From contig CAYMZD010000003.1 of NCBI GenBank assembly GCA_964394855.1, positions 22,607 to 86,606 of the forward strand: a DNA stretch of 64,000 bases, in the 5' to 3' direction. Within the stretch, counting starts at the first letter, position 1. Every line of letters starts with the position of its first letter. The translations under genes were made by a program, and so were the position numbers. Below are positions 4,213 through 64,000 of the stretch, piece by piece. The notes beneath the pieces were generated by a model. It was not told where the DNA came from and searched no databases. It saw only the letters and a list, made by a program, of their open reading frames with translations. Origin of the DNA: an uncultured Gammaproteobacteria bacterium (lineage in GTDB: Bacteria > Patescibacteriota > Microgenomatia > Daviesbacterales > UBA10151).

Positions 4213-4216
4213 ACTG

Positions 4217-4290: not shown

Positions 4291-4304
4291 TCTGATTAAA
4301 TAAC

Positions 4305-27442: not shown

Positions 27443-29281
27443 TTATAGTTCAAATTTGAATTCTTTATCTTGATCCAATTTAAATTTGGCTTTTTGGGAG
27501 CCGTTAATTTTAATAGTGTATTCAAAATCTTTGGCTCCGGGCTGTTTTTGGACCAATAACTTATATTCACCCTTAGGATTATACGGCACAGTGTATTCTA
27601 TCTCTAACTTTCTTGAATTTTGTGGCCTGACAGTCACAAAGGCCTCAAAAACTCCTTTTCCAAGCTGTTCAATGGTATTGATACCATCTTCCGAGCCTTT
27701 GGAGGAAATTAGCTTACTCCCCTTAGGTACAAAAAAGCGGACATAATCCCTGTTGATACCATTTAACCATACCCCAAAGGGTTGGGAATTTTTATATTCA
27801 ATGATAACCTTCTTTCTCACTTCCGAACCTTTAACACTAATCTCCTGGGTGACTTTTTGCTCAACATAGAGATTAGACTTGCCCCCAGCAAAATTAGCAT
27901 CATTGATGTGAAGGTAATCACCATCAAAATCTTTTATTTCTCCTATCCAATTAAGCTTTGCTAAAGAGTTTTGAGTCCTCCTGTCGTGTATGTAAAACAT
28001 CACATGCTTGTGATTGGCCAACCTAATGATTGTCTCCAGGGCTTGAGGAACTTTCTCCGTATCAGCTCCCACCAGTTTGGCCAAAATTTGAGACATTAAA
28101 ACACCTAAAATGGCCTTTCTATCTTGCGTTCCTTTAGCAGCCACCTCTGCATATGATTCCAGTTCATAAATAACATTAGGACAATTGCATCTTGGGTCTA
28201 ACTTTGCAGAGTAGGGAGTGCCAAAAATATCAACTTCGCCAGTCACTTCAATTAACTCTTCTACCACTTGAGAATCAATATAAATGATGCCATCAAAAGG
28301 GGTGCCTTGTCCCAAAAGTAGATACATTCTCTCAAATTCTTGGGCAGCAGTGGGTAGATCTGGAGAAATATTGGAATCTCTCATACTCCAAGCAGAGCGG
28401 GGTTTACCAGATACTTCAGGCAGATATTTGACAATTGGTGGAGGCGGGGTTAAAGGACAGATTTTGGATTCACAAGTGGCTAATAAACGTTCATCCAAAC
28501 GATAGATATCATCAGAGGTAGTAGTTGTCACTTGACCTCTGTCAACTTTTAAGAAGGCATAGGCCGTGATAAAACCGCCTGTGGGTCTAATCTCTTTATC
28601 ATTTTGAAAAAGTAAGAGGTAGTTTTTAGGACTCTGTTGTCCCAGGGCAGTAGGTGTCACCTCTAGGGCATCTTTGGCGTCTGTGACAGCAGCGTGAGTT
28701 CCTACCATAAAGTTCTTGGCTGTTTGGACAACTTGTTTGACATTTATTCCTCTAAATTGCGACGGATATTTATCTACATCTATTTTTTCCACTTTTTCCC
28801 GGGCTTTTTTTAAGTTAGGCTCCACTTTAGTAAAAGAAGGTAGTGATTTTTCTAAAACCTTTAAGCTTTGCGAGATTCTATCCGGACCAGTAATAGGTTT
28901 TCCCAAAAACCCCAATTCTTCCTCATGTGGTTTTAAATCAGCTAGAATTTTTTCCACTGCCTCAAGATCGTCTATCCCTGCAGAGGTCAGTGATTTAATA
29001 TCCCCATAATATCCTCCCACCACCGGAATAATTTTCATCCATAAAAGAAGATTTAAGGATACATCAACTCGGGTGAGTGCATCATGTGTCTCTTTGACTT
29101 GAGCTTGAATTTGTCCAAAATTCTGCTGCTGGTAAGCAGAAGCTATGGCTTTAGCTTTGACTCCTAAATCCTTCATTCCATCCACAATAACTTTAAAAGG
29201 AATGCCAACAATGAGGACTAAAATTACAAAAAAAATAATTAATCGAGTTAAAGGCCGTTTTTTATTTAAATTTTTCAGCAT
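27443..29281 (-). CDS. DUF4012-like membrane-anchored extracytoplasmic protein, 612 aa
   Basis: N-terminal TM followed by a large external domain. The block YLLLFQNDKEIRPTGGFITAYAFLKVDRG matches my recollection of the DUF4012 hallmark (LLL.QNNAE.R.TGG.IG). The gene sits immediately upstream of the priming glycosyltransferase. Confidence 0.5.
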   Translation of the reverse strand: MLKNLNKKRPLTRLIIFFVILVLIVGIPFKVIVDGMKDLGVKAKAIASAYQQQNFGQIQAQVKETHDALTRVDVSLNLLLWMKIIPVVGGYYGDIKSLTSAGIDDLEAVEKILADLKPHEEELGFLGKPITGPDRISQSLKVLEKSLPSFTKVEPNLKKAREKVEKIDVDKYPSQFRGINVKQVVQTAKNFMVGTHAAVTDAKDALEVTPTALGQQSPKNYLLLFQNDKEIRPTGGFITAYAFLKVDRGQVTTTTSDDIYRLDERLLATCESKICPLTPPPPIVKYLPEVSGKPRSAWSMRDSNISPDLPTAAQEFERMYLLLGQGTPFDGIIYIDSQVVEELIEVTGEVDIFGTPYSAKLDPRCNCPNVIYELESYAEVAAKGTQDRKAILGVLMSQILAKLVGADTEKVPQALETIIRLANHKHVMFYIHDRRTQNSLAKLNWIGEIKDFDGDYLHINDANFAGGKSNLYVEQKVTQEISVKGSEVRKKVIIEYKNSQPFGVWLNGINRDYVRFFVPKGSKLISSKGSEDGINTIEQLGKGVFEAFVTVRPQNSRKLEIEYTVPYNPKGEYKLLVQKQPGAKDFEYTIKINGSQKAKFKLDQDKEFKFEL

Positions 29282-29916
29282 TAAATTGCTCCTTTTCCCG
29301 AAAGAACCGCCGGGATAGTTTTAAGGATGATCCACAAATCAAAAATAATTGAGCGTTTTTGTATATATTTAGCATCCATCTGAACTCTTTTATCAAAATT
29401 TATTTCTGAACGACCGGATACTTGCCAAAGCCCAGTTAATCCTGGTTTACCAGATAAGATAATCTTAACATACTCGCGGGAGTTAGGATGTTTAATTTGT
29501 TGCTCTTCCAACTCAAAAGGATAATATGCTCTGGGGCCAACTATACTCATCTCGCCCCTTAGGATATTAATCAGTTGGGGGAGCTCATCCAAAGAGGTTT
29601 TGCGGATAAATTTCCCCACTCTGGTAATTCTGGGATCCTCATCAATAGGCAATTTATAACTATTTTGTTTATATTTTTTAAGTAAGTCTGGATTATTGTT
29701 AAGTATCTCCTGGGCACCAATAATCATTGATCTAAATTTATACATTTTGAAAAGTTTCCCGCTTTTTCCCACTCTCATGGGTGTATCAGCTAAAATTGGA
29801 CCCTTTGAATCTAGCTTTATAGCCAAGGTCACAAATAGTAAAAAAGGGGATAAAATAATGAGCCCTAAACTTGAGCCCATAAAATCTATTAACCTTTTAG
29901 CAAAATTGTAGACCAT
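29281..29916 (-). CDS. Polyprenyl-phosphate phosphoglycosyltransferase, small monotopic PglC/WecP-type 'bacterial sugar transferase'
   Basis: KRLIDFMGSSLGLIILSPFLLF (re-entrant helix), PRITRVGKFIRKTSLDELPQLINILRGEMSIVGPR (PF02397 hallmark). Start chosen at MVYNFAKRLIDF. The track start would overlap the upstream GT4 by about 90 nt. Confidence 0.85.
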   Translation of the reverse strand: MVYNFAKRLIDFMGSSLGLIILSPFLLFVTLAIKLDSKGPILADTPMRVGKSGKLFKMYKFRSMIIGAQEILNNNPDLLKKYKQNSYKLPIDEDPRITRVGKFIRKTSLDELPQLINILRGEMSIVGPRAYYPFELEEQQIKHPNSREYVKIILSGKPGLTGLWQVSGRSEINFDKRVQMDAKYIQKRSIIFDLWIILKTIPAVLSGKGAI

Positions 29917-29923
29917 AAGTCTT

Positions 29924-30937
29924 TTAAGTGTACAACAAAGAGTCAATGGTTTGTCTAAAATTTTTAATAAATTTATTCTTACTAAAATTTGTGGCATTTT
30001 CCAGACAATCATTGGGGTTTATTTTAATAGCATGCAACCCCAAAAGAGCCTTTTCCAAACCTTCAACAGTCTGTTCATCAAAAAATGTGCCTGTTTTAAG
30101 CTCAACTACTGTTTCCAATGCACCTCCTTTTTTATAAGCTACCACAGGTTTACCCAGAGCTTGAGCTTCCAAACTGGTTAATCCAAAATCCTCTATCCCT
30201 GGCATGATGAGGGCTCTGCACCCAGCTAAAATATTAACTACCATCTCATCACTCAATCCTCCTGCAATCATTTTAAAGGGAACTCCCATTTTTTTTAAGG
30301 CTTGAGTTGCCAAATCAAATCTTTTATATTTATTTGGCCTGCCTATCATGACAAAATAACCACCATCAAATGTTTCCACACCTTTAAATCTTTCCAGATC
30401 TATAAACGGATAAACCACTTTTGATTCCGTTCCGTAGACCCGCTTGATGCGCCTTCTCGCATTATCTGAACCAGCAATAAAAAAATCTACCCTTTTTGCG
30501 CAAACTTGATCATACAGTCTTAAGTTAGTCATCAAAGCTTCTCCTAAACCATAATTTCCATATCCTGAAAAATGCCACAAAAATCTGGGAGGGGTATGAC
30601 AATAACAAATATGAATTGTCCCGGGTTTGGTAATAATACACTTGGTAAATCTGGTGGTGTGGGAAATTACTAAATCAAACATACTAAAATCAAACTGTTC
30701 AAAAGCAATTGGATAAAAGGGTAACATCATTTTATATAAAGCCTTCCATCCTGGAATTTTTTGTAGAAAAGATGTTATTATTTTTTTCTTGCCAAATCTT
30801 TTTTTAAGCTCCGTATGGTTTTCATCATAAACAGAAGTATAAATCGGCGCATCAGGATAAATCTCACAAAGTCCCTCAAGGACTCTTTCTGCTCCTCCCC
30901 ATTGCACCAAATCATCATGAACAATGGCTACCCGCAT
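29924..30937 (-). CDS. GT4-family glycosyltransferase
   Basis: Start MRVAIVHDDLVQWGGAERVLEGL and a C-terminal GT-B block DFGLTSLEAQALGKPVV (E-x7-E variant). Confidence 0.75.
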   Translation of the reverse strand: MRVAIVHDDLVQWGGAERVLEGLCEIYPDAPIYTSVYDENHTELKKRFGKKKIITSFLQKIPGWKALYKMMLPFYPIAFEQFDFSMFDLVISHTTRFTKCIITKPGTIHICYCHTPPRFLWHFSGYGNYGLGEALMTNLRLYDQVCAKRVDFFIAGSDNARRRIKRVYGTESKVVYPFIDLERFKGVETFDGGYFVMIGRPNKYKRFDLATQALKKMGVPFKMIAGGLSDEMVVNILAGCRALIMPGIEDFGLTSLEAQALGKPVVAYKKGGALETVVELKTGTFFDEQTVEGLEKALLGLHAIKINPNDCLENATNFSKNKFIKNFRQTIDSLLYT

Positions 30938-32025
30938 TTATGGTATACCTCCAGTGTTTGCTTTGCTAATTTTTGCCAACTAAAATCTTTATATCTTTTT
31001 AATCCCTTCTTTACTAGCTCTAATCTTCTCTCCTCACTATTTAAGACTTGAAAAAATTTTTCCACCATATCATTTATGTCATGAGGATTAAAATAAATGC
31101 ATGCGTCCCCTCCCACTTCCGGTAAACTACCTGCATTTGAGGAAACAACAGGACAACCAAGCGCCATAGCCTCTAAAATTGGAATACCAAAACCCTCCTC
31201 AAAACTGGGCATCACAAACATAAGCGCATTTTTGTAGAGAGAAACTAATTCTTCATCTGTTACATATCCTTTATAAATAATGTCCGGATTTTGATATTCT
31301 TTTCTAATTCTTTGCCAGAAATAATGATCATGACCAGCTAAAACCAATTTTAAATTTGGATAATCTTTCTTGATCCTTAAAAATGCTTTGATTAACCCTT
31401 CCACATTTTTATGAGGATGAGCATTTCCCACATAAAAAATATAAGGGTTTCCTACCAAATTTCCATGTTTCATTTTTGACACGGCCGTGACAATATTGTT
31501 ATCAACTGCTTCATAAGTTACAATTATTTTTTGACTATTAACTCTCCACTCATCCATTAACTGTTTTTTGACAAACTGTGAGGGAGCTATAATCTTTTCT
31601 GAATTTTTGACAGCCCGCTCAAAAACTTTTTTGTAACTAAATTGTTTTAGTTTATGAATAACATGACTATGGGTAGTGGCCCGCTGCATGGAAAAATGTT
31701 GATGAATAAGATCATGAATTGTCACCATAAATTTACCCCCATAAAAAATGGGTACATTAAAATGGGGAAAATGTACTATATCTGGTTTAATCCGATTTAA
31801 TATCCGCGGTAATCTAATCTGTTCCTTAACCCCATACCAGCGAAAATCAGCCAAAATCTTTTGGAAATTATTATTTAACACCAGTCTATCATAATCAATT
31901 TTTAAAAGAAGGATAAAATATTCGTTTTGTTTATCTAATTTCTGCAAACTATCAATCAAGTTCCTGATATATCTTCCCAACCCTGCTTCATGATACATTC
32001 TGCCGTCTATGACAATTTTCATCAT
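30928..32025 (-). CDS. GT4-family glycosyltransferase
   Basis: MKIVIDGRMYHEAGLGRYIRNL and EGFGIPILEAMALGCPVV (E-x7-E). Start trimmed to MMKIV. Confidence 0.8.
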   Translation of the reverse strand: MMKIVIDGRMYHEAGLGRYIRNLIDSLQKLDKQNEYFILLLKIDYDRLVLNNNFQKILADFRWYGVKEQIRLPRILNRIKPDIVHFPHFNVPIFYGGKFMVTIHDLIHQHFSMQRATTHSHVIHKLKQFSYKKVFERAVKNSEKIIAPSQFVKKQLMDEWRVNSQKIIVTYEAVDNNIVTAVSKMKHGNLVGNPYIFYVGNAHPHKNVEGLIKAFLRIKKDYPNLKLVLAGHDHYFWQRIRKEYQNPDIIYKGYVTDEELVSLYKNALMFVMPSFEEGFGIPILEAMALGCPVVSSNAGSLPEVGGDACIYFNPHDINDMVEKFFQVLNSEERRLELVKKGLKRYKDFSWQKLAKQTLEVYHKCG

Positions 32026-32027
32026 GA

Positions 32028-32915
32028 TTAAACAGTGTTGCTCCTCCTCGCTAGCCACCATTTTAAGTTAATTCCCCAATATACCAACCAATTAATCAAA
32101 AACGGATATTTCTCCTCCAGATGTTTTTTATAAAAAATTTTCATAGTTTGATAAAAAGAATTTAAAGCCTGTTTTTGTGAGATTTCAGAAGCAGTGGCAA
32201 TTTTTTGAGAATGTTTTTTAATACCAGATGTCACTCCTTTGTAATGAATAATTTTGACATCTGGCACGTACATTATTTTATAACCTGCAGTTTTAATGCG
32301 AAAACACAAGTCCAGGTCTTCGCCGTAAAGAAAATAATCTTCATCAAATAAACCAACTTTACGAAGGACATCTTTTCTGGTCATAAAAAAAGCTCCAGAT
32401 ATAGCATCTACCTCATGAGGTTTTGTCATATCTCTATCTTTTAAATGATATAAACTGTCAATCTTCAAAACAAAGTATAAAAATGAGGCCCAAGGAGTGG
32501 GAAAACCTCTATGGGAAGCAAGGTCCATTAAACCATCAGCTTTTTCCACCCTACAAGACGCGCCGCCCACATCTGGATTTTGTTCCAGATATGAAACCAT
32601 GTACGGTAAGGTTCCTGGTAAAACTTTGCTGTCCGGATTAAGCAGTAAAATATATTTTGTGGTAACTTTCTTTAAGACTAAATTATTAGCCCTACCAAAT
32701 CCCAAATTTTCTTTATTTTTTAAATAGTTTATTTTGGGAAATTTAATTTTTGCTTTTTGTAAACTGCCGTCCACTGATGCATTATCTATAACCCAGGTAT
32801 CAAAATTTAGCTCATCTTCAACATTTTCCAGGGACTGAAGACATTGTAATAAATAGTCCCCCCCGTTAAAATTAACAATAATAATAGATAAGTTATTTTT
32901 TGCCAAGTTGCTCAT
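32028..32915 (-). CDS. GT2-family glycosyltransferase (rhamnosyltransferase-like)
   Basis: LSIIIVNFNGGDYLLQCLQSL, VIDNASVDGS, ENLGFGRANN, LLNPDSKV, GEDLDLCFR. Confidence 0.8.
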   Translation of the reverse strand: MSNLAKNNLSIIIVNFNGGDYLLQCLQSLENVEDELNFDTWVIDNASVDGSLQKAKIKFPKINYLKNKENLGFGRANNLVLKKVTTKYILLLNPDSKVLPGTLPYMVSYLEQNPDVGGASCRVEKADGLMDLASHRGFPTPWASFLYFVLKIDSLYHLKDRDMTKPHEVDAISGAFFMTRKDVLRKVGLFDEDYFLYGEDLDLCFRIKTAGYKIMYVPDVKIIHYKGVTSGIKKHSQKIATASEISQKQALNSFYQTMKIFYKKHLEEKYPFLINWLVYWGINLKWWLARRSNTV

Positions 32916-34083: not shown

Positions 34084-34086
34084 AAT

Positions 34087-35532
34087 TTATGGCTCTGGAT
34101 CATCTTTACTAAATTCTTTTTTTATTTTTGTTAAATCAACAATTACATAATTTGGAGTTTCCTCTAAAACTGTAAAATGTCTCATGGCCCATTTGGTTTG
34201 ACCATCTTTGGCCACTGACACCAGATGAGTAACACCGAAGTTCGCTACCATCTCGGCGAAGGGGAAAGCAACCACTGGCCAACCCGGTCTATCGATTTGG
34301 TAAAGAAAAGCCGTGTCACCACTGTACGGAGCCACCACCACTGCATTTTGAGGAAGGAGTTGATCCGCCTTTTTCCCTGCCTCAATAATGGGGGGATTAT
34401 TAATTTTGTAAAGTTCCTTAACTTGGGTCCAACTAAAATAAAACATCAGAGAAAAAAATAACACTGCCGAAAAAAAAGACCAAAATCTTGATACAAAATT
34501 AGCACTGCCCTTAATTAGGTAGACAAAACCAATACTGGCAAAGACAGAGGCCACTGGAACAAATATAATCTGATAATAATCATGTCTGACATTGCCTGTG
34601 GCAAAAACCACAAAATATAAAAACATAGCCAAGGCCCAAAGATGAAGAAAAAAATTCCCATCTTTAGGTCTTATTAAAAGACCTAAAAAGAAAAGAAATG
34701 CTCCTGTGACTCCCAATATTTCTCTACCAATCCTCTCGGATATTATCCACCACCAAAAGGCTGGTCTAAAACGGATACCATCTCCATTAAGGAGCCAATT
34801 CGATGCTGGGATGCCCTCTGGAGACTGTAATATCCACAGCCTCCATAAAATAAAGGGTAGTAGTGACAGAAACAAAAAAAGCAAAAGTTTTTTAGAAATT
34901 AATTTACCATTTTTTTTGTAATATACAGCCCCTAGAGGAAGCAGGTAAAAAATAGCCCAAGGCTTTATTAAAAAAGATAAAGCAGTAAAAAATCCTGCCC
35001 ACCACAAAAACTTCCTTCCCTCCCAGATCCAACGATCCACAAAAAAGATCATGCCCAAAGCAAAGAAAACAAATGTTGGCTCTGGCAAAGTGGTTCTGGA
35101 GAAAAAGATGTTGAATGGTAAGAAAGCAAAGACCAAAGCTGCCAAATAGGCCACAGCCACTGACGCATATTTTCTGACTATCAAATATAAAAAAACTAAA
35201 CTACCCACAGAGAAAATAACAGAAACAAGACGATGAAGCCATTCTTGAACACCAAAAACAAGATATAAAGGATAAACTGCTATATTGTAAACTGGAAACT
35301 CCACAAAGCGGTATCTGGCCAGATTGGGGTAGGGAGCTTCTGCCACACCTGATGTGTCATCATATTTGGGCAAAAAAGGATTAAAACCCTCCTTAATAAA
35401 ATTTCTGGTGACGGCTGCCGTATCTGCTTGCCTCCAAGAGTGCCAATCAGCAATTGGGGAATCTATTTTATAAAGCCTGACTAAAAAGGCTAAGATGACA
35501 ATAAGTATTAACCAGGCTTTATTTATTTTCAT
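34087..35532 (-). CDS. Polytopic membrane protein, putative GT-C-type (PMT/ArnT-like) glycosyltransferase
   Basis: About 11-12 TM helices. First loop reads RLYKIDSPIADWHSWRQADTAAVTRNF, a pattern I associate with GT39/ArnT-like annotations. There is a C-terminal soluble domain of about 100 aa. No database confirmation. Confidence 0.45.
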   Translation of the reverse strand: MKINKAWLILIVILAFLVRLYKIDSPIADWHSWRQADTAAVTRNFIKEGFNPFLPKYDDTSGVAEAPYPNLARYRFVEFPVYNIAVYPLYLVFGVQEWLHRLVSVIFSVGSLVFLYLIVRKYASVAVAYLAALVFAFLPFNIFFSRTTLPEPTFVFFALGMIFFVDRWIWEGRKFLWWAGFFTALSFLIKPWAIFYLLPLGAVYYKKNGKLISKKLLLFLFLSLLPFILWRLWILQSPEGIPASNWLLNGDGIRFRPAFWWWIISERIGREILGVTGAFLFFLGLLIRPKDGNFFLHLWALAMFLYFVVFATGNVRHDYYQIIFVPVASVFASIGFVYLIKGSANFVSRFWSFFSAVLFFSLMFYFSWTQVKELYKINNPPIIEAGKKADQLLPQNAVVVAPYSGDTAFLYQIDRPGWPVVAFPFAEMVANFGVTHLVSVAKDGQTKWAMRHFTVLEETPNYVIVDLTKIKKEFSKDDPEP

Positions 35533-40114: not shown

Positions 40115-40127
40115 ATTTCACCACCTC

Positions 40128-41153: not shown

Positions 41154-41172
41154 AAATAAATTGTAGCAGGTT

Positions 41173-42558: not shown

Positions 42559-42561
42559 AAT

Positions 42562-45682: not shown

Positions 45683-45694
45683 AGAATTATTTTA

Positions 45695-46486: not shown

Positions 46487-46496
46487 CAGGTGTATT

Positions 46497-49299: not shown

Positions 49300-49314
49300 C
49301 TAATCTTTAAAGTA

Positions 49315-51894: not shown

Positions 51895-51916
51895 AGGCTA
51901 AATTGTAGCTAATTAT

Positions 51917-53308: not shown

Positions 53309-53319
53309 GAAAATATTTT

Positions 53320-53955: not shown

Positions 53956-53956
53956 C

Positions 53957-55405: not shown

Positions 55406-55414
55406 TTTAATATT

Positions 55415-58006
55415 TTAATCTTTATCTATTGACTGATTTAAAATTATTTTGTCCATAATTACTTCCATAGGAATATTGGGGAATCGAACCACCAGTCCTT
55501 TTAGTATAGTTCCGCCCACAGGCAATTTAAAGTTATAGGTATGAAAATTACCGTCCATCATAATCGGAGTTTGTATTTTTATATCTTCTTGTCTGGATAA
55601 ATATTTATCAGACAAAGGATAAATCGATAAATTTAAATAATTTTGAACTCCATTTTGTAATTCTGCTGCCTCATGTTCATTTTTTATCTCTGCAAATGGA
55701 TGCTCTATAATAAAATCCGCCAAATCAGAATCTATTTGACTAGAGTTTTTAAGAATTTCCAATTCTTGAATACCCGGAAAATCATCTTTTGGGGTCTCTA
55801 AAATAACTATTTTAAAAAATCTGGCATTTACTGGAGGAAAAACATCCTTGATTTGGCCATTGATGACACTATCCCTTTTTGCTTTATAAATTGTTCTCCA
55901 CTCATCAGTCTCATCCTTTTTAATTTGATACTCATATATACTAGGTATACGCGGTTCATATGAGAAAAGTCGTACTTCTGAAAAAGTATAATCCTCCCCA
56001 AAATTAACTACAATAAAGGGCTTTTTACCCTTTACCCATTCAACTTTATTTGCCTCCCACCTAGTATTGGGATTACCATCAACAATATACTTAGCCACAT
56101 TTTTTGCTTCATTGTCGCTGGAAAATACTTGAGCAACCTGTCTAAAATAACTTCTTTCCCCAAGATAAGTGACCAAAGCCTCCCGATAGTTAGGATCATG
56201 AATTATGCTAAAATCTATTTTTTGAGGCCTTTTTGTAATAGAACTGTCAACATAAGGATACTTTTTAATTTGATTTACCAGACTACTGGCTTTCATGACA
56301 ATTTGTAAATTCACAGGTTGATATGATGGAAAATAAGTATCAAATTTAACTAATCCATTAATACTTCTGCTACCCTTGTCATTACTGACTATCATAGATC
56401 TATACACAACTTGGTTATTATTTATTTCTATCCCAGGACCATCAATATAATTTTCAAACAGTTTAGCGCTCTTTAAGTCTATCTTTTCACCCTGCGGACG
56501 GATTTGAGAATTTAATTTATCAATATTAATTAATTGATGCTTGCTGTTATAGAAAAAGTGATAAGCTTTTGTAAAATCATTACTCTTTTTATCTTTAATT
56601 AACTCCTCGTAAGTATCGACAATTTTGATATTATCGATTTTGACTTTATAAAAACTGGCCAGTGAGCTTTCAGTGGAATATACACCGGTTCTTAATATAT
56701 CCCAAAATAAATTTTGCACAACTGGATCAGCAACCGTATCAAAAAGAAATAAAGTTTTACCCTCAAGTGAAGGCACTTCTTTTTTAAGATCGGCAAAGAA
56801 AATCTTTGTAGCTACACTTCTTTTTATCAGTTCTCCTTTAATCTGTGAACCAGCCATGAGATGGATGTAGATGAGTGCTACTGCCAATATAAACCCCATT
56901 ACTTTTAAAAGAATTCTTTTGTTGGAAAAAAATAGGATTTTTAAATAAATTGCTAAAATTACAGCAAAAAAGGGAAGCCCGAAGAGAAGATATCTTTGGG
57001 TTGATGGATGAATGGTAGATGGATTAACTAAATAATAATTAATATACCCTGCAATCCAGAGCAGAACAAAAAAAACTATAACCTTTTTTAAACTAGGAGA
57101 AATTTTGATGAATAGAAAAAATGAAATGATTACTAAAATAAAAGCAGTAGCCAAGATAGCTGGATCAGTACTAGAAGAAAGGTCAGAGGGAATTAAAAAG
57201 TTACTCAAATTTATCACCAATGTACCCAGTGATGAAAAATTCAAATATGGAAGGTAATCTTTGATTTGGCTTGTGCCTAGGTTGCTTCTTTCAATGCCAA
57301 AAAAATCAAGAATATGCAAGATATAAATCAAGAAAGTTATCAAAAAATATGGGGAAAGTCGCAAAAACGAATTTCTAAAAATTTTAAGATTTAGACTAAA
57401 TTTGCTGGAAAAATATAAATCTGAAAAAAATAGTAGAGGGAAAAGGCTGTGAGCTCTTTGGGTAAAAAGAAGGGTTAGCGCACCATAAAAAATAATTATG
57501 GAAAAAAATAAAAAAAATGATTTCTTTTGTAGGTAAGTCTGATAAAGTAACAGGAGTAAAATTACACCAATCATATAGATGAGGCTGGAGACTGAAACAG
57601 AAGACATAAACATTATTTCTGCTCCAACATATCCCGAGGCCAGTATCAAACCCGAAAGATAAGCTATTAAATAATCTTTCGTAACTCTGAAAACAAAAAA
57701 GTAAACTACCAAGCAAAGCAGAATATACAAAATTATTGATGCTCCAAAGTAGACAGTAGGATTTTCCTTAAAAAATAAATATATTGGATAATAGCTTAAA
57801 GACCAACCCTGATAAGGAAAATGGAAAAGACCTCCTTGTTGTAAACGATAAAGCAGTACATAATCATCTCTCCAAAAATATAGATTCCCAACGAAACCAT
57901 ATGTCAAAAAAACTATTACTGAATACGATAATACTATCAAAAAAAGAAAAGATTTTTTCCACATATCATCTGCCCATAATATAATCGATATGATATACTC
58001 ATTCAA
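55415..58006 (-). CDS. Large polytopic membrane protein (863 aa, YfhO-like layout) with a C-terminal discoidin (F5/8 type C)-like carbohydrate-binding domain
   Basis: N-terminal multi-TM region with FWRDDYVLLYRL in the first loop. The C-terminal KYIVDGNPNTRWEANKVEWVKGKKPFIVVNFGEDYTFSEVRLFS matches the discoidin DG-x-x-x-T-x-W ... vDLG core. Confidence 0.5.
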   Translation of the reverse strand: MNEYIISIILWADDMWKKSFLFLIVLSYSVIVFLTYGFVGNLYFWRDDYVLLYRLQQGGLFHFPYQGWSLSYYPIYLFFKENPTVYFGASIILYILLCLVVYFFVFRVTKDYLIAYLSGLILASGYVGAEIMFMSSVSVSSLIYMIGVILLLLLYQTYLQKKSFFLFFSIIIFYGALTLLFTQRAHSLFPLLFFSDLYFSSKFSLNLKIFRNSFLRLSPYFLITFLIYILHILDFFGIERSNLGTSQIKDYLPYLNFSSLGTLVINLSNFLIPSDLSSSTDPAILATAFILVIISFFLFIKISPSLKKVIVFFVLLWIAGYINYYLVNPSTIHPSTQRYLLFGLPFFAVILAIYLKILFFSNKRILLKVMGFILAVALIYIHLMAGSQIKGELIKRSVATKIFFADLKKEVPSLEGKTLFLFDTVADPVVQNLFWDILRTGVYSTESSLASFYKVKIDNIKIVDTYEELIKDKKSNDFTKAYHFFYNSKHQLINIDKLNSQIRPQGEKIDLKSAKLFENYIDGPGIEINNNQVVYRSMIVSNDKGSRSINGLVKFDTYFPSYQPVNLQIVMKASSLVNQIKKYPYVDSSITKRPQKIDFSIIHDPNYREALVTYLGERSYFRQVAQVFSSDNEAKNVAKYIVDGNPNTRWEANKVEWVKGKKPFIVVNFGEDYTFSEVRLFSYEPRIPSIYEYQIKKDETDEWRTIYKAKRDSVINGQIKDVFPPVNARFFKIVILETPKDDFPGIQELEILKNSSQIDSDLADFIIEHPFAEIKNEHEAAELQNGVQNYLNLSIYPLSDKYLSRQEDIKIQTPIMMDGNFHTYNFKLPVGGTILKGLVVRFPNIPMEVIMDKIILNQSIDKD

Positions 58007-58008
58007 GA

Positions 58009-60033
58009 GTGAAGAACTTTTTTATTAATCCGCCAATAATTACTATAACTCTAGTTTATATTCTTTTAATTCTCCTGATGTTGCCGCTTCGGAATGTAGC
58101 ATATTTGGATGATTTCGCCTATATCAAAAATGTCGAAGAGTTTATTGAAACCGGTAATTTAAGGATAACTGATTGGGCTTCCACCAGCTTAGTTTTCCCT
58201 ATTTTATGGGGCGCTTTATTTGCCAAACTTTTTGGCTTTTCCATCAAGATATTGCATGTATCCAATTTGGTCTTATTCTATTTTGGCCTGATGGCATTTT
58301 ATGGTATATTAAGGCAGTTTAATCTTGATAAATTTAAATCTGTCGTCTTTACCCTATTTCTTTTAAGCTACCCTTGGGTTTTCCAATATCTTTTTTCATT
58401 TAACTCTGATACTTTTTATGTCTCTTTAATAAACTTCACGATTTATTTTTATCTTAAGGGTTTGAGTACCAATAAATTGTTTTATTATTTTTTGGGATCT
58501 TTATTCGCAGGATTTTCTTTTTTAACCAGGCAATTGGCTATTACATTTCCCATTGCCATCGGTATAACTTTATTTTTAAAATTTAAAATTGATAAAAAGG
58601 TTGACTGGTCGGCCTTAGCGGTATCCTTATTGCCCATAGTTTTAATTATCATCGGTTATTATAAATGGATCTCCATAGCGGGAGCTTCTGCAGCCGGTTA
58701 TATTTTTTTTAATGAATACACCAAAAGGGCAATAATAGATAGACTGATTCCTCCAAATTTGCAAAGATTTGGTGACACCAGCAGACTTTATTGGGATTTA
58801 TTTTTGCAAAGGCCGTCTATATATTTCGTGTCCATTAATAACCACATACTCCCATTTTTCCTTTTATTTGCGCTTCAAATAACTAAATTTAGAAAATTTA
58901 TAGTATCAAATTTTAAGTCCTTAGCAACAACATCTTTAATTTTTTCTTTTTATGTTTTTTTAGTGTGGACTGTCTGGCAAGATAAAATTCTCTACCGGAT
59001 CCCCCAAACAATTTTTAGTATGGATAAAATGATTGATAACTGGCAATTTATTTGGCCTAGACTTTTCTTTTTAGGTATTCCTTTTTGGATTGGTATTTTT
59101 TTATTAACCTTTAATAAAATTAGGAAATTATTTTTTATTTTAAAACGGCCGTTAATTTCAGGAAGAGTATTTTTTTCTATATTTGCCCTTTTTTCTTTTT
59201 TTCTTTTTTATAAAGCCTTTGAAGATATTTTTTCCACTAATTTAAGACCTCAATTATATACTGATTCATTGCTTCGCTCCAGTGCTTTTTTGAGAACTAT
59301 TTATGTATTATTAAACCCTACCATTATCATCGAGACGTTTAAAGAAATTTGGATAATTTTACTAATTCTGTTTTTGATTTTCATATTTTTTTATGTAACC
59401 ATTATTAAAAATAAGCTAAGAATAAAGAATCTAAATTTACCCATTTTATTGATAACCTTGTTATTTTTAGGACACTTTTCCATCACCAATTTTTTAGCCC
59501 ATTCCCATTGGGAAGAATATACCATTGCTTTTGTACCATTTATAATTTTAATATTGGCACTGATATTAAAAAATATTCCCCTATCTAAAATTAGGGCTGT
59601 TATTTTAATTTTTCTCTTACTGTTTTTTTCTTTACAAATTACCAGAAATCGCTATCAGGAAAATGGCGCTACTTGGGAACTGGGAACTCAAATGGTGAGA
59701 TCTGGGATAGATCCAAAACGGGTGGTAGTTTTTAATATGTCATGGCGTCGCTACTGGCTCTGGCAAGATGCTTTTAATAAGATGGTTAACCAAAAATACA
59801 GCGGGGATAAATATAAAGTCAGGCCGGCAGAGTTTAACCCAGTTGATGAAAAATTACTGGAAGGAGTTTTTTACCAAACAAGGACTATTAATACCAGTGA
59901 AGATATCTCTCGTGGCTATGATGATAAATCTGTTATTCTTCAATCAGAACCTACTTGGCTTTTTGCAGGTAAAAGTTTTATTGTCTGGAAAAAATTTATT
60001 GTCACCAAGGAGTTTCACAAAGCAGGGACTTAA
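58009..60033 (+). CDS. Polytopic membrane protein, 674 aa, possible GT-C
   Basis: YLDDFAYIKNVEEF in the first loop and about 14 TM helices. The C-terminal roughly 120 aa are soluble. Confidence 0.4.
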   Translation: MKNFFINPPIITITLVYILLILLMLPLRNVAYLDDFAYIKNVEEFIETGNLRITDWASTSLVFPILWGALFAKLFGFSIKILHVSNLVLFYFGLMAFYGILRQFNLDKFKSVVFTLFLLSYPWVFQYLFSFNSDTFYVSLINFTIYFYLKGLSTNKLFYYFLGSLFAGFSFLTRQLAITFPIAIGITLFLKFKIDKKVDWSALAVSLLPIVLIIIGYYKWISIAGASAAGYIFFNEYTKRAIIDRLIPPNLQRFGDTSRLYWDLFLQRPSIYFVSINNHILPFFLLFALQITKFRKFIVSNFKSLATTSLIFSFYVFLVWTVWQDKILYRIPQTIFSMDKMIDNWQFIWPRLFFLGIPFWIGIFLLTFNKIRKLFFILKRPLISGRVFFSIFALFSFFLFYKAFEDIFSTNLRPQLYTDSLLRSSAFLRTIYVLLNPTIIIETFKEIWIILLILFLIFIFFYVTIIKNKLRIKNLNLPILLITLLFLGHFSITNFLAHSHWEEYTIAFVPFIILILALILKNIPLSKIRAVILIFLLLFFSLQITRNRYQENGATWELGTQMVRSGIDPKRVVVFNMSWRRYWLWQDAFNKMVNQKYSGDKYKVRPAEFNPVDEKLLEGVFYQTRTINTSEDISRGYDDKSVILQSEPTWLFAGKSFIVWKKFIVTKEFHKAGT

Positions 60034-60039
60034 ATAGAA

Positions 60040-60675
60040 ATGAAAACCATACTTTTAACAGGAGCAACTGGTTTTATCGGTTCATATCTTTTGCCAGAGC
60101 TGGTCAAAGATTTTAAAGTTAAATGCTTGATAAGGCAGGATTTAAAATTTACACATCCTAATGTAATTTTAATTAAAGGAAACCTTCGTTCAGAAAAAGC
60201 CATCAGAGACTCCACCAGGGGAGTATCAGCTATTATTCATCTGGCAGCCCAAAAATATAATATTAAAGACGCCGCCAAGATAAGAAAAGTTAATGTCGGA
60301 GGAACTATTAACTTGTTAAAAAATGTAAGTGGCGCTCATTTTATATATGGCAGTACCTGGCTTGCGGCATATCCACAAAAAACAGGACTTTATGGTCTAA
60401 CTAAAAAAAGGGCCGAGGAGGCTATTAAAAAAAGCGGTGCAGATTATACTATTTTACGATTACCGCACATTTTTAGCCATAAAAAATCTCATCAGATTTT
60501 TATCAGATACATATTACCTGTTTATTTAAGATTAAGGTACGGCGTTAAACCTATCTATCAGCCGATTGAAATAACCAAGGTGTGTAAAGCTATCAAAAGA
60601 ATCATTAACAATAAAAAATTTTATAGAAAATCTTTTTATGTAGTTGATGAAAAAACCCTACAACCTGTCATTTAG
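60040..60675 (+). CDS. Short NAD(P)-binding Rossmann protein (atypical SDR/epimerase family), 211 aa
   Basis: MKTILLTGATGFIGSYLLPEL has the GxxGxxG motif, and YGLTKKRAEE is a YxxxK motif. It is shorter than classical extended SDRs. Confidence 0.6.
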   Translation: MKTILLTGATGFIGSYLLPELVKDFKVKCLIRQDLKFTHPNVILIKGNLRSEKAIRDSTRGVSAIIHLAAQKYNIKDAAKIRKVNVGGTINLLKNVSGAHFIYGSTWLAAYPQKTGLYGLTKKRAEEAIKKSGADYTILRLPHIFSHKKSHQIFIRYILPVYLRLRYGVKPIYQPIEITKVCKAIKRIINNKKFYRKSFYVVDEKTLQPVI

Positions 60676-61456
60676 TACATTTGTAGGCCATCATATAGCC
60701 TAACCCGGATATAAATTTAGAACTTGTTTCTACTTTATAAAAAAGATTAAGCAAAATTTTAACTAATTTCGTACCCATCTTAATTTTTTTAAGGTGGCAA
60801 AGATAATCCAGCGCCCTTAGGGGACTGGGGAAAATCAAATAACCCTCTTTGTCTTCAATTTTAAAACCTGCTTTCTCCAACAAATTTTTAAACTCCCCTC
60901 TTTTATATTGAATTTCATAGCCATAATTATAAATGCCCAATTTTTGCAAAAAACCAATAAATAGAAATCTCCCCCATAAGTCATACTTAACTGGTATTGA
61001 AATCATGGCTACTCCATCGGGTTTTAAAATTCTCCTCATCTCCCGCAAAGCTTTACTGGTATCGGGAAAGTGTTCTACCGTACCAATGGAAACAATAAAA
61101 TCAAAACTACTATTGGGAAAGGGGATCTTTCTCACATCTCCATATTTTGCCCTGACATATTTTGCCTCCTTCTTAACAGCTTTTAATACTTTTAATGAAA
61201 TATCTATACCAAAACATTTGGCCCCCTTTTTATGAGCCCATAATAACAATTTTGTATTTTTAACTTCATCCCAAAGGTCTGATTTAAAAAGCAATTTGCC
61301 CTTAAAGTCACCGAACCAATTGGAAATAATTTGTTTTTCTCTTTTGGAGAAATAAATGGTAGTCGGTATTTGGGCCATTTCTTTTGTTTCATCAAAGACT
61401 TGATCCCAAAATTTTTGTAAGTTGTTAGTCGACCATTGGTCCGGTGAAAGTCTCAT
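60668..61456 (-). CDS. Class I SAM-dependent methyltransferase
   Basis: KCFGIDIS, SFDFIVSIGTVEHFPDTSKALREMRRILKPDG (Methyltransf_11 motifs II/III). Confidence 0.75.
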   Translation of the reverse strand: MRLSPDQWSTNNLQKFWDQVFDETKEMAQIPTTIYFSKREKQIISNWFGDFKGKLLFKSDLWDEVKNTKLLLWAHKKGAKCFGIDISLKVLKAVKKEAKYVRAKYGDVRKIPFPNSSFDFIVSIGTVEHFPDTSKALREMRRILKPDGVAMISIPVKYDLWGRFLFIGFLQKLGIYNYGYEIQYKRGEFKNLLEKAGFKIEDKEGYLIFPSPLRALDYLCHLKKIKMGTKLVKILLNLFYKVETSSKFISGLGYMMAYKCTK

Positions 61457-62690
61457 AACTGTCAGGCCTCCTTATTAACTGCAGCTTTCCCTTCTCTATC
61501 ATATATATTGGCGGTCGCATAGTGGTAAATTGGCTGGAGCGGGACATAGTGTATGCACCACAATCTTTAATAACTATCAAGTCCCCCTCTATCACTTTAG
61601 GTAATGTTTTGGATCTGGCAAAAAAATCAGGGGTTAATAAACTACTACCTGCTATATGATATTTTTTAATTTTTCCCGTCTTACCAACAACAAATAAATC
61701 TCTTTCGGTAAAGAAAACGTTTTCCGGAATAAAAGTAATGCTGGCATCAACAAAAACCCAGTTACCCTTGACGGCAATCACTTTACAAATCACCACTCCA
61801 GCATTACTAACAATAGAGCGTCCCGGTTCAAAAATTATTCTTAAACCTTTTAAATTATATTTATCAATTCCCTCCTTTACACTCCGGGAAATCCTCTCGC
61901 CAAAATGTTCAATCTCTGCAACTTTTGGTTTAAATTCCAGTCCTGCGAAATTTTTTAAAATGGCCTGGATGGGGGAATATCTAAGAAGCGAGGGTGAAGG
62001 GATGCCTCCTCCTAAATCAATATATTCAATGTTAATATTTTCTTTCTTTAAATTAAAAGCCAATTTCATCAAAGCATCAACGGTTTTTAAGAAAGGCTGA
62101 GCCGATAAAACTTGGGATCCAATATGAGCATGTAAACCAATAAAGTTAATGTGCTGCAATTTTGATAGCTTTTTTATTTCCTCTAAAGAATCTTCCAATG
62201 GTATACCGAATTTTGATAAATAAAATTCCACTGTTTTGGCCAAATTGCCGCTGACATTAGGATTAATTCTCAAACCTACATTAATTTTCCTTTTCAAGTT
62301 TTTACCAATTTCATTGGCTCTTTGAAGATCTGCCGGCGAATCTCCATTATATGAATAAATACCTTGCCCGAAGGCTTGAGATAGATCATCCATGCTTTTT
62401 CCTGGTCCATCCATAATAAGCCAACTCTGTTTAAAACCTGCTTTTTGACAAAGATAGAGCTCCATACCTGATGAGATTTGGGCGCTTGAACCCAGAGCTT
62501 GTAATATTTTTAAGACTTGCAGTTCATTATTGGTTTTAACGGAAAAGAAAATTTCAACGGGATAATATTTAGAAAAAGCTTTTTTAAATCTTTGGTAATT
62601 TGATTTTATTAGATTAGCATCAAAAACAAAAACCGGGGTACCTGTTTTTTTAGCTATGTTTCTTATTGGTATCCTCGCAAAATTTTTCAT
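61425..62690 (-). CDS. PLP-dependent fold-type III enzyme of the Orn/DAP/Arg decarboxylase family (LysA/NspC-like)
   Basis: GTPVFVFD ... FFSVKTNNELQVLKIL (PLP Lys), GLHAHIGSQ, LGGGIPS, FEPGRSIV, GDLIVIKDCGAYTMSRSSQF. The usual CESGD Cys appears absent in a hand alignment. Confidence 0.7.
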   Translation of the reverse strand: MKNFARIPIRNIAKKTGTPVFVFDANLIKSNYQRFKKAFSKYYPVEIFFSVKTNNELQVLKILQALGSSAQISSGMELYLCQKAGFKQSWLIMDGPGKSMDDLSQAFGQGIYSYNGDSPADLQRANEIGKNLKRKINVGLRINPNVSGNLAKTVEFYLSKFGIPLEDSLEEIKKLSKLQHINFIGLHAHIGSQVLSAQPFLKTVDALMKLAFNLKKENINIEYIDLGGGIPSPSLLRYSPIQAILKNFAGLEFKPKVAEIEHFGERISRSVKEGIDKYNLKGLRIIFEPGRSIVSNAGVVICKVIAVKGNWVFVDASITFIPENVFFTERDLFVVGKTGKIKKYHIAGSSLLTPDFFARSKTLPKVIEGDLIVIKDCGAYTMSRSSQFTTMRPPIYMIEKGKLQLIRRPDSYETFTGPMVD

Positions 62691-62727
62691 TCTTACAAAG
62701 TTATCAACTATTTTTCAAAATGTCAAA

Positions 62728-63720
62728 CTATCGAGTTCGCCAGTTTTTAGGAAGTAAGGAACTGTCAATTTCCACTTTAGTAAACTTTGGCCTCTGATAA
62801 CCTAACTTTTTAGCATAGCCCCAAGTTTTCTTTATCCCATTAAGTAGTGTGGTTTTATCTTTATAACCCAAAATATTTTTCGCCAATGTGTGATCAGGAA
62901 TGGCATTTTGGACTTCTTGGGGTCTTTCATCCAAATAAATTGGCGGAATTTTTATTCCACTAACATCCTGTATGATCTCTGATAACTTATTAAGGGTATA
63001 ATCTTTATCTGCTCCAATATTAAATGTCATTCCGGAAACCTGCAAAAAACCACACTTGTGTAAAGCAGCAACCACATCATCGATATAAGAAAAGCATCGA
63101 CGCTGATTTCCATCTCCATAAATGTAATATGGTTTTTTCTCAAGGAGTGCATTCATGAAAATAGTGACTACGTTTCTGTAGGGATCTTGCATATTTTGTC
63201 TTGGACCATAAACATTATGAGGACGAGCGATGACATATTCAAAATGGTGGATTTTAGCTAGAATTGGCAGACTTTTTTCCATCATTAATTTACTAACACC
63301 ATATAAATCTTCCGGCTCTGGATCATCGATTTCTTTAAAAGGAGTTTGTATTGCCCCGTAAACAGCAATACTTGAGGTTACTACTATTTTCTTTAAACTA
63401 CATCTTAGCGCAGGCACTAAGGTATTAATGAAGGTATTCCAATTTCTGGAAGTAATATCAATGGGTGAAAATTGGGCTTTATTTTCAGCAGCACAAGCAG
63501 CCAGATGATAAATCAGCTCTGGCTTAATCTTCTCAATTAGCTTAGCGGTTTGCTGACTATTTCTTAAGTCACATTTGAAAAATTTAGCTTTTTTATTGAC
63601 ATGGGAAAGCTTGCCGCCGGAAAGGTCATCCAAACAAAAAACCTTATTCTTTTCTTGAATAAGTCTATCAACTAAATGAGAACCAATAAAACCAGCGCCA
63701 CCAGTTACTAAAACTTTCAT
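62728..63720 (-). CDS. NAD-dependent epimerase/dehydratase (extended SDR: UDP-sugar 4-epimerase, 4,6-dehydratase or UXS-like)
   Basis: MKVLVTGGAGFIGSHLVDRL, a YGVSKLMMEK (YxxxK) motif, and a length of 330 aa. Confidence 0.85.
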   Translation of the reverse strand: MKVLVTGGAGFIGSHLVDRLIQEKNKVFCLDDLSGGKLSHVNKKAKFFKCDLRNSQQTAKLIEKIKPELIYHLAACAAENKAQFSPIDITSRNWNTFINTLVPALRCSLKKIVVTSSIAVYGAIQTPFKEIDDPEPEDLYGVSKLMMEKSLPILAKIHHFEYVIARPHNVYGPRQNMQDPYRNVVTIFMNALLEKKPYYIYGDGNQRRCFSYIDDVVAALHKCGFLQVSGMTFNIGADKDYTLNKLSEIIQDVSGIKIPPIYLDERPQEVQNAIPDHTLAKNILGYKDKTTLLNGIKKTWGYAKKLGYQRPKFTKVEIDSSLLPKNWRTR

Positions 63721-64000
63721 TTAATGAACCTCTTTTTACTAAACAAGCTGGCTAATCGATAATAAAGAATTACCGATACCATTTTCCTGGCTGTTTTAAT
63801 ACCTCCGATTAAAGGTCCTGAAATTTTTGATTTGCCGGTCCTAGCTCCATATCTAACCGGCACTTCTTTGATGGTAAAACCGTGAAGGAGCGCCAAAATG
63901 CTCAGTTCTGGTTGAAAATGGACTCCACCCACTGTAAAAAGTGATTTTATTTTTTCATAAGCATGGCGGTTTATTAATCTAAATGTTGCTCCTGGATCTG
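63717..64000 (-). CDS. GT2 polyprenol-phosphate glycosyltransferase-like, C-terminal fragment (N-terminus beyond the window end)
   Basis: The frame is open to the window edge. It reads ...GATFRLINRHAYEKIKSLFTVGGVHFQPELSILALLHGFTIKEVPVRYGARTGKSKISG, which is a DPM1/ArnC-like C-terminal block. Confidence 0.6.
   Translation of the reverse strand, partial: DPGATFRLINRHAYEKIKSLFTVGGVHFQPELSILALLHGFTIKEVPVRYGARTGKSKISGPLIGGIKTARKMVSVILYYRLASLFSKKRFIK

Follow-up and report, generated by a model that had tools for sequence, protein, structure and literature searches.

What does a bacterium with a genome of roughly 0.8-1 Mb build with a single gene array of 36 kb that encodes many glycosyltransferases (GTs) and a series of large polytopic membrane proteins? 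We studied this question for positions 27443 to 64000 of a 64,000-nucleotide stretch (hereafter the window, meaning the whole stretch) of contig CAYMZD010000003.1, from assembly GCA_964394855.1. The organism, a groundwater-type bacterium, belongs to Candidatus Daviesbacteria, within the candidate phyla radiation (CPR). An initial annotation of this DNA had described a surface-glycan locus containing nine membrane proteins that resemble GTs of the GT-C type. Our results support the GT-C reading, with corrections. Eight of the nine proteins (34087, 41173, 44330, 49315, 51917, 53957, 55415, and 58009) are of GT-C type, whereas the ninth (35519) is assigned by its profile matches to the O-antigen polymerase/ligase family. 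In addition, the locus does not end at 64000, as had been proposed. An identical contig runs on past the window end and brings the length of the locus to 46 kb or more; about three GT-C-like proteins are encoded on this extension, which together with the eight of the window makes about eleven. It is probably the main surface glycopolymer locus of Candidatus Daviesbacteria, using a two-stage process in which a Wzx/Wzy-type assembly is followed by extensive extracytoplasmic glycosylation.

The polytopic membrane proteins

The open reading frame (ORF) listing gives 31 genes between 27443 and 64000, plus one that is cut by the window end. Neighbouring genes overlap or sit a few bases apart, such that the array is essentially gap-free, as initially described, and the nine polytopic ORFs are all found where they had been placed, each with about 6-12 transmembrane (TM) segments in hydropathy profiles. 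The Wzx protein (48067) is a tenth polytopic protein of the array. ORF starts are mechanical, and genes are named by their start coordinate in the window. The Pfam scan covered all 31 array proteins, with gathering scores as cut-offs, and family alignments were compared profile to profile with hhalign. The eight GT-C-like proteins, with about 6-13 membrane segments each by hydropathy, are the following (lengths in amino acids, aa; CBM, carbohydrate-binding module):

34087-35532, minus strand: PMT_2 GT-C, 481 aa, 9-11 TM; PF13231 at 44.9 bits (cut-off 26.1); acidic motif WRQADT, with YDD also in the first loop
41173-42558, minus strand: PMT_2 GT-C, 461 aa; PF13231 at 42.6 bits; acidic motif LWLDEA, with DE directly after TM1
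44330-45682, minus strand: divergent PMT_2-type GT-C, 450 aa, 10-11 TM; no Pfam match of its own, placed by homologues and hhalign; acidic motif AWPEM
49315-51894, minus strand: GT-C, 859 aa, with a CBM6-like beta-sandwich in a large, predicted outer domain and a C-terminal TM anchor; placed by AlphaFold2 model and Foldseek; acidic motif FGDAPY
51917-53308, plus strand: GT-C, 463 aa, first gene of the variable island (see below); PF02366 at 33.4, PF13231 at 32.8, and PF11028 (TMEM260) at 26.8 bits, all above cut-off; acidic motif WLEDWDS
53957-55405, minus strand: GT-C, 482 aa, paralogue of the 55415 membrane domain; PF13231 at 24.3 bits, just below the cut-off of 26.1; acidic motif SQDDFF
55415-58006, minus strand: GT-C with a C-terminal CBM32 (F5/8 type C), of a rare family, 863 aa as ORF and 849 aa as called; acidic motif WRDDYV
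58009-60033, plus strand: PMT_2 GT-C, 674 aa from a GTG start (651 aa in the database), 12-13 TM; PF13231 at 35.8 bits; acidic motif YLDDFA

Pfam matches to PMT_2 or PMT exceed the gathering score in 34087, 41173, 51917, and 58009, and are marginal in 53957. Neither 49315 nor 44330 has a direct Pfam match, and the same holds for the membrane domain of 55415. None of the nine polytopic proteins exceeds an NCBIfam cut-off, and the sub-threshold leads among them (Agl23, archaeal STT3, and MmpA) were not used as membership. Searches of the PDB by sequence and by profile returned nothing useful for 49315, 55415, and 44330. Since pairwise BLASTP and phmmer comparisons among the nine paralogues are near noise (best E 1e-4), family profiles were needed to relate them. 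Recent duplication of the polytopic genes was considered and rejected given this low pairwise similarity; the GT-C-like proteins are old, divergent paralogues.

The family profiles provide the missing connections. The strongest hhalign match is that of 55415 with 53957 (99.5%, E 3e-23, over 360 columns), and the 55415 family also matches those of 51917 (97.7%), 34087 (96.5%), and 44330 (92.6%). The 34087 family matches 51917 (96.3%), 41173 (93.4%), and 44330 (93.3%), and 41173 matches 51917 at 95.5%. The resulting network joins six families: 34087, 41173, 44330, 51917, 53957, and 55415. In line with this, about 40% of the 44330 homologues, among the matches listed (144 homologues in all), carry PF13231. 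The families of 49315 and 58009 have no hhalign link to the other GT-C families, so 49315 is assigned by its fold and 58009 by Pfam.

The fold of 49315 is clear. Its AlphaFold2 model (pLDDT 88.6, pTM 0.85) is best matched in Foldseek by AftD (E 1e-10), followed by AglB, yeast and human STT3, and PglB, and its C-terminal beta-sandwich is matched by CBM6 modules. We found 204 database homologues of this protein; the few with a named organism are from Daviesbacteria, Microgenomates or Patescibacteria, and PF10131 is matched by a few homologues. In 55415, Pfam recognises the C-terminal F5/8 type C module alone, and a full HMMER scan with residues 1-600 gave 280 relatives. Among 49 family members, 29 carry F5/8-C, 3 carry CBM_AftD, and 1 matches PMT_2. 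The model of 55415 (pLDDT 92.0) matches AftD (E 3e-8) and also Pmt4, ALG12, and Pmt2. The membrane domains of both modelled proteins have a GT-C fold, at sequence identities to the solved enzymes of about 9-14%. We regard the 49315 and 55415 families, which lack direct Pfam and NCBIfam coverage, as new members of the GT-C superfamily. Residues 275-401 of 49315 also show a weak NCBIfam match (35 bits, for a cut-off of 210) to MmpA, a trehalose-lipid delivery protein of Corynebacterineae, which may reflect a shared GT-C-like ancestry rather than a shared function.

Acidic motifs in the first extracytoplasmic loop had been reported for several of these proteins. We find one in each of the eight GT-C-like proteins, just after TM1 (3-15 residues after the first hydrophobic segment); the location on the outer face was tested directly in 55415. 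The motif residues are conserved within families. D35 of 49315 (GDAPYF), just after TM1, is invariant in an alignment of 30 sequences, together with D140, D179, R181, and R328-D329. D47/D48 and R338 are invariant in 49 sequences of the 55415 family, as are E27 and D44 in 41 sequences of the 44330 family. The helices of the 55415 model define 11 TM segments with the N-terminus inside. K or R occurs in every short loop that shares a side with the N-terminus (KD, KS, SSKFSLN, IKIS, SNKR), and the opposite short loops hold few. This positive-inside pattern of the model-defined loops supports an outer-face location for DD47-48 and for the 475-residue domain that bears the CBM32. In the other seven proteins the motif would also face outwards, judging from homology.

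The database gene calls start later than the mechanical ORFs in 55415 (849 aa, the mechanical start being TTG) and 58009 (651 aa, the mechanical start being GTG). The 651-aa start of 58009 would drop the TM1 that precedes the DD motif. The longer start would therefore fit a GT-C architecture better.

Conserved core and variable island

Whether the block is conserved among related genomes or varies between strains was a question of the initial annotation, and we find that both are true. The closest relatives of the class II aminoacyl-tRNA synthetase (aaRS) beside the array show 72-80% identity and include Candidatus Daviesbacteria, with other Microgenomates/Patescibacteria next. The complete genome of one Daviesbacteria relative (CP066688.1) has 820,589 bp, which agrees with the small-genome organism initially proposed. 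We counted the genes of the proximal part of the array in 80 aaRS-anchored loci. The recurring order across Daviesbacteria-like genomes is aaRS-RecO-DUF4012-PGT-GT4-GT4-(GT2)-GT4-PMT_2-Wzy_C-g37781, where PGT stands for the priming phosphoglycosyl transferase. DUF4012 is present in 55 of the 80 loci, the PGT in 52, and the GT4 29924 in 49; the 34087 type is found in 22/80 and the Wzy_C type in 12/80, two counts that are limited by the 10 kb flank.

Further along, the central order reads 49315-like, Wzx, GT2, methyltransferase, PMT_2 (44330 type), GT4, GT2, PMT_2 (41173 type), GT4, GT4, and hexapeptide transferase. It is exactly kept in two long contigs, the complete chromosome CP066688.1 and a 333-kb Microgenomates contig. 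The kinase-like gene 45695 is the sole central gene absent from both, and the 41173 orthologue at the same position in CP066688.1 is 52% identical. Since both the proximal and the central gene orders are kept in relatives, the core from 27443 to 51894 is a lineage-conserved locus, with four GT-Cs. Its other genes are (SAM, S-adenosylmethionine):

27443-29281, minus strand: DUF4012 protein, 612 aa, with one N-terminal TM; PF13196 at 86.9 bits; last gene of the array, adjoining recO
29281-30012, minus strand: PglC-like small PGT, 243 aa, with one hydrophobic segment; Bac_transf PF02397 at 202 bits over the full length
29924-30937, minus strand: GT4; Glycos_transf_1 and Glyco_transf_4
30928-32061, minus strand: GT4; Glycos_transf_1 at 121 bits
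32028-32915, minus strand: soluble GT2; Glycos_transf_2 at 84.9 bits
32893-34083, minus strand: GT4; Glyco_trans_1_4 at 66.9 bits
35519-36928, minus strand: Wzy_C-family polytopic protein, 469 aa; PF04932 at 26.2 bits, below the cut-off of 31.7
36903-37784, minus strand: GT2 with one C-terminal TM (259-277); Glycos_transf_2 at 67.4 bits
37781-38353, minus strand: 190-aa protein adjoining the Wzy_C gene; no Pfam or NCBIfam match
38353-38955, minus strand: hexapeptide-repeat O-acetyltransferase, WcaF-like; Hexapep at 63.2 bits, best NCBIfam match WcaF, below its cut-off
38939-40114, minus strand: GT4; Glycos_transf_1 at 140.8 bits
40128-41198, minus strand: GT4; Glycos_transf_1 at 88.3 bits
42562-43395, minus strand: GT2 with a C-terminal TM (251-269); Glycos_transf_2 at 115.5 bits
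43392-44345, minus strand: GT4; Glycos_transf_1 at 97.7 bits
45695-46486, minus strand: APH-family kinase-like protein; PF01636 at 31.7 bits
46497-47333, minus strand: SAM-dependent methyltransferase; Methyltransf_23 at 100.7 bits
47249-48070, minus strand: GT2, kept next to Wzx in both long relatives; Glycos_transf_2 at 51.6 bits
48067-49299, minus strand: Wzx-type flippase (MOP superfamily), at least 8 TM; Polysacc_synt at 82.1 and Polysacc_synt_3 at 61.9 bits

The DUF4012 family is enriched in CPR and associated with capsular polysaccharide and exopolysaccharide clusters (Méheust et al., PMC6744442); a profile search of the PDB with 27443 gave no match. In several Daviesbacteria-like genomes the Wzy_C gene is directly followed by an orthologue of the 190-aa ORF (37781-38353).

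The part distal to 49315 is different. GC content is 0.305-0.312 at 52-60 kb, against about 0.34-0.40 elsewhere in the window. Most genes of the array are on the minus strand, and those on the plus strand (51917, 53320, 58009, and 60040) are all found here. The starts of the divergent pairs, which are mechanical, are 22 bp (51894/51917) and 2 bp (58006/58009) apart. About 14 kb, from 51917 to about 65.7 kb, separates 49315 from a trio of genes encoding proteins of 638, 123, and 1151 aa. In the Microgenomates contig about 0.6 kb, with a single 177-aa DUF5667 gene, separates the orthologous trio (1164, 120, and 648 aa) from the 49315 orthologue, and in CP066688.1 only three genes lie between the 902-aa and 650-aa orthologues. 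The genes of this part are also patchy. There are four indexed matches to 55415, of which one is the source protein itself and the named one is from a Woesebacteria genome, while CP066688.1 encodes homologues of 51917 (47-48% identity) and of 53957 at other positions. Given the lower GC, the mixed strands, the patchy genes, and the proximity of the trio to 49315 in relatives, we read the stretch from 51917 to about 65.7 kb as a variable island within the conserved locus, containing the four other GT-Cs of the window. The coincidence of the GC drop with the part that is absent or rearranged in relatives suggests that its content was horizontally exchanged.

The end of the island and the rest of the locus were obtained from a Logan contig (L081) that overlaps the window end with 0 mismatches over 11,273 bp and adds at least 10 kb. 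The remaining genes of the distal part, and those beyond 64000 (L081 1-9720), are (SDR, short-chain dehydrogenase/reductase; PLP, pyridoxal phosphate; NDP, nucleoside diphosphate):

53320-53955, plus strand: SAM-dependent methyltransferase; Methyltransf_11 at 79.9 bits
60040-60675, plus strand: short NAD(P)-binding SDR-type protein, 211 aa; partial matches to NAD_binding_10 and Epimerase
60668-61456, minus strand: SAM-dependent methyltransferase; Methyltransf_11 at 70.8 bits
61425-62690, minus strand: PLP-dependent Orn/DAP-type decarboxylase; Orn_Arg_deC_N at 135 bits, NCBIfam lysA at 257 bits, below the cut-off of 297.9
62728-63720, minus strand: NDP-sugar epimerase/dehydratase, 330 aa; Epimerase at 163.5 and GDP_Man_Dehyd at 148 bits
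63717-64000, minus strand: GT2, 244 aa, of which only the 3' part is in the window; Glycos_transf_2 at 85.3 bits; whole on L081 at 9270-10004
beyond 64000: the rest of the 244-aa GT2, then a radical SAM protein
beyond 64000: 638-aa protein with 11 TM; PTPS_related at 31.2 bits, above cut-off
beyond 64000: 123-aa protein with 4-5 TM; no Pfam match
beyond 64000: 1151-aa protein with 12 TM; faint DUF5667 match
beyond 64000: 349-aa GT2
beyond 64000: 799-aa F5/8-C protein related to 55415

The Pfam scan also recovered the other families named in the initial annotation: the PGT, Wzx, the acetyltransferase, three methyltransferases (46497, 53320, and 60668), two SDR/epimerase proteins (60040 and 62728), the PLP decarboxylase, and the kinase-like protein. 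The cytoplasmic GTs had been underestimated at about eight. There are ten Leloir GTs in the window, six GT4 (29924, 30928, 32893, 38939, 40128, and 43392) and four GT2 (32028, 36903, 42562, and 47249), plus the eleventh, a GT2, cut at 63717-64000. The LysA-like decarboxylase (61425-62690) sits between a methyltransferase and an epimerase, near the radical SAM gene, and its product may be an unusual non-sugar substituent instead of lysine.

Outside the array, the flank in the window is of housekeeping type, with RecO, aaRS, MraW, a penicillin-binding protein, Mur ligases, MurA, MurG, FtsW, FtsA, and FtsZ, as well as a class I aaRS, ParB, and a signal peptidase. A 291-aa ORF between MraW and the aaRS (24404-25279) has no Pfam match. 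At the opposite window end (877-3518), a 617-aa protein with two GT2 domains adjoins an ABC-transporter ATPase, which may be a second, ABC-type glycan pathway. Close by, a 287-aa mechanical ORF (3451-4314) overlaps a same-strand tRNA-Val(CAC) gene (4216-4290) and is unlikely to be a real gene.

Proposed assembly of the glycan and alternative readings

In the assembly that we propose, the first stage would be cytoplasmic. The PglC-like 29281 would prime the glycan on polyprenyl phosphate, the ten GT4/GT2 enzymes would lengthen the lipid-linked glycan, and the acetyltransferase, methyltransferases, and sugar-modifying enzymes would decorate it or supply unusual sugars, before Wzx 48067 flips it across the membrane. 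In the second stage, outside the membrane, 35519 (Wzy_C) would polymerise the glycan or ligate/transfer it, and the eight GT-Cs of the window, with about three beyond, would add sugars from polyprenyl-phosphate-sugar donors made by GT2 enzymes resembling DPMS, ArnC, and GtrB. Two or three of the GT-Cs, 49315 and 55415 among them, would grip the polymer via their own CBMs, as do AftD, EmbC, and GT136 enzymes. The conserved core would build a lineage-wide backbone with its four GT-Cs, and the low-GC island, with four GT-Cs and tailoring enzymes, would diversify the exposed part.

Several elements of this scheme deserve a closer look. The assignment of 35519 is based on its orthologues: all 7 from related genomes match Wzy_C (best E 1.2e-10), and the family has no hhalign link to the GT-C set and no sequence match in the PDB. 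The Wzy_C family does not separate polymerases from WaaL ligases and PglL-type transferases. GT-C enzymes use polyprenyl-phosphate sugar donors, and by analogy those of the locus would do the same. The best candidate for the synthase of these donors is the 244-aa GT2 (63717), whose first match in the PDB is the Pyrococcus DPMS 5mlz (E 1.5e-12, residues 3-215), followed by ArnC and GtrB. A weak candidate is 42562; this GT2 always adjoins a 41173-type GT-C, and the pair is kept in CP066688.1 and in the Microgenomates contig.

A number of observations weigh against the proposed assembly. The best candidate for a donor synthase lies mostly beyond the window, and the NCBIfam and PDB matches of 42562 to AglJ, DPMS, ArnC, and GtrB cover its N-terminal half only and are far below cut-offs. 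No donor flippase of the GtrA, SMR or MATE families was found by Pfam in the window or among the proteins beyond it. Pfam also found no chain-length regulator of the Wzz/polysaccharide co-polymerase (PCP) type and no LytR_cpsA_psr (LCP) protein among the 31 array proteins and 10 upstream proteins; genes for them could be present in other parts of the genome. The protein 35519 could be a ligase or an O-oligosaccharyltransferase instead of a polymerase, and the targets of PMT_2-type enzymes also include proteins (PMT) and lipids (ArnT). Finally, 58009 is placed by a single Pfam match, and the sidedness of the acidic motifs was tested directly for one protein, 55415; positive-inside counts from crude hydropathy segments were inconsistent across the other proteins and were discarded as unreliable.

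Some of these points would fit a general system of protein O-glycosylation, in which the Wzy_C protein acts like PglL/PilO and moves an oligosaccharide en bloc to pilins, S-layer or other surface proteins, and the PMT_2 GT-Cs act on proteins or extend protein-bound glycans. The Wzy_C family indeed contains the PglL/PilO O-oligosaccharyltransferases, in addition to polymerases, and the array lacks Wzz and LCP. Furthermore, 51917 matches the models of PMT and of the TMEM260 protein O-mannosyltransferase, but PMT_2 is a broad family, and membership in it says nothing about the acceptor. Pili are a prominent, enriched feature of CPR (PMC6744442), yet there is no pilin or S-layer gene within the array according to Pfam. 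The CBM6-like and CBM32 modules of 49315 and 55415 point to carbohydrate rather than protein acceptors, and ten cytoplasmic GTs with Wzx and Wzy_C are typical of polysaccharide repeat-unit pathways. We favour a polysaccharide acceptor because of these CBMs and of the many cytoplasmic GTs, and consider protein O-glycosylation unlikely.

The locus might alternatively combine several independent glycan systems side by side: a conserved Wzx/Wzy polymer, modules of GT2 and GT-C acting on peptidoglycan, lipids or teichoic-like polymers, and an island that was acquired and makes a product of its own. The distinct GC, mixed strands, and patchy distribution of the island from 51917 on are compatible with this, as are the recurrence of GT2/GT-C pairs as units, the homologues of 51917 and 53957 at other positions in CP066688.1, and the presence in the same window of the GT2-GT2 fusion with an ABC ATPase (877-3518). 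Yet Pfam found a single priming transferase and a single Wzx across the 36 kb. The core genes, all on one strand, overlap or adjoin one another in the manner of a single operon, and their order is kept as a block in distant relatives. We thus regard a juxtaposition of separate systems as quite unlikely.

No transporter assignment, one of the outcomes that the initial annotation had set against its own reading, was seen, the only protein in a transporter family being Wzx, which it had already named. It is extremely improbable that the polytopic proteins belong to transporter families or to unrelated membrane families, with acidic motifs arisen by chance, since the gaps in Pfam (44330, 49315, and the membrane domain of 55415) and in NCBIfam (none of nine above cut-off, and a weak 'delivery protein' match to MmpA in 49315), and the near-noise similarity among paralogues, are outweighed by PMT_2/PMT matches in 5/9 proteins and in homologues of 44330, hhalign values of 92-99.5% among six families, membrane domains of both models that match GT-C enzymes only, and acidic residues invariant over 30-49 divergent sequences.

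Related systems and significance for CPR

The proposed two-stage assembly has two closest functional parallels. One is the assembly of arabinogalactan, lipomannan, and lipoarabinomannan (LAM) in mycobacteria and corynebacteria (EmbA/B/C, AftA-D, MptA-C, PimE). There too, many GT-Cs on the outer face elaborate a polymer begun on a cytoplasmic polyprenyl carrier, and some of them have CBMs of their own, as 49315 and 55415 do; AftD is the best Foldseek match of both proteins, and CBM_AftD occurs in the 55415 family. However, the families of the locus are of PMT_2 type, with two that lack Pfam models, and not Emb/Aft, and no genes for a decaprenyl-phospho-arabinose pathway were seen in it. Mycobacterial arabinogalactan is exported by an ABC transporter, and the locus has Wzx. 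Moreover, its host is a CPR bacterium of roughly 0.8-1 Mb in which the GT-Cs are packed in one locus instead of being scattered.

The other is the group of three-component systems (GtrABC; CsbB/GtcA/YfhO; GT136), where a GT2 polyprenyl-phosphate-sugar synthase and a GT-C modify a finished polymer outside the membrane. The GT136 enzyme is a GT-C with a C-terminal CBM that acts after polymerisation (Kelly et al. 2024, PMC11127046). Likewise, we find a DPMS/ArnC/GtrB-like GT2, a conserved adjacency of GT2 and GT-C, and CBM-bearing GT-Cs. These systems have one GT-C per locus, whereas here the window has eight and the whole locus about eleven, and a dedicated donor flippase was not found in the window by Pfam. 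With the Wzx/Wzy clusters for O-antigen or capsule, the common set includes a priming PGT, Leloir GTs, Wzx, Wzy_C, an acetyltransferase, and enzymes modifying sugar nucleotides. Nevertheless, no Wzz/PCP, export, ligation or outer-membrane components were found in this locus, which is far larger than a typical cluster and has many GT-Cs. Finally, ArnT, PMT, and TMTC (GT83 and GT39) have in common with the locus proteins the PMT_2/PMT profiles, the DE or DD of the first loop, and the GT-C fold, but the latter lack MIR and TPR domains and some of them carry CBM6-like or CBM32 modules.

All components are thus of known kinds, and the locus does not demonstrate a new principle. Their combination, a Wzx/Wzy-type cluster with a large and partly variable set of GT-Cs in a genome of about 0.8-1 Mb, appears to be undescribed; in a literature search of limited breadth, we found no description of GT-C arrays or of this conserved locus in CPR.

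The CPR, or Patescibacteria, are bacteria with very small genomes that presumably live attached to other cells, which makes their surface central to their biology. To our knowledge, almost nothing is known of its chemistry. Here, a single glycan locus takes up roughly 4-6% of a genome of 0.8-1 Mb. Given this share, the about eleven GT-Cs, and the association of a conserved core with a variable island, the glycan is likely to be a key component of the envelope and may determine the specificity for partners or phages. The two well-modelled GT-C families with built-in CBMs, which lack Pfam coverage, extend the catalogue of GT-Cs and are targets for biochemistry. More tentatively, and with more doubt than conviction, one may imagine that Microgenomates-type CPR build an unrecognised major envelope heteropolysaccharide, assembled mostly outside the membrane by a battery of GT-Cs of PMT_2 type and of the 49315 and 55415 families, as a functional parallel to arabinogalactan and LAM. 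The core would then be essential for the envelope, and the horizontally exchanged island would define a pattern on the surface of these episymbionts on which their attachment to hosts or susceptibility to phages depends.

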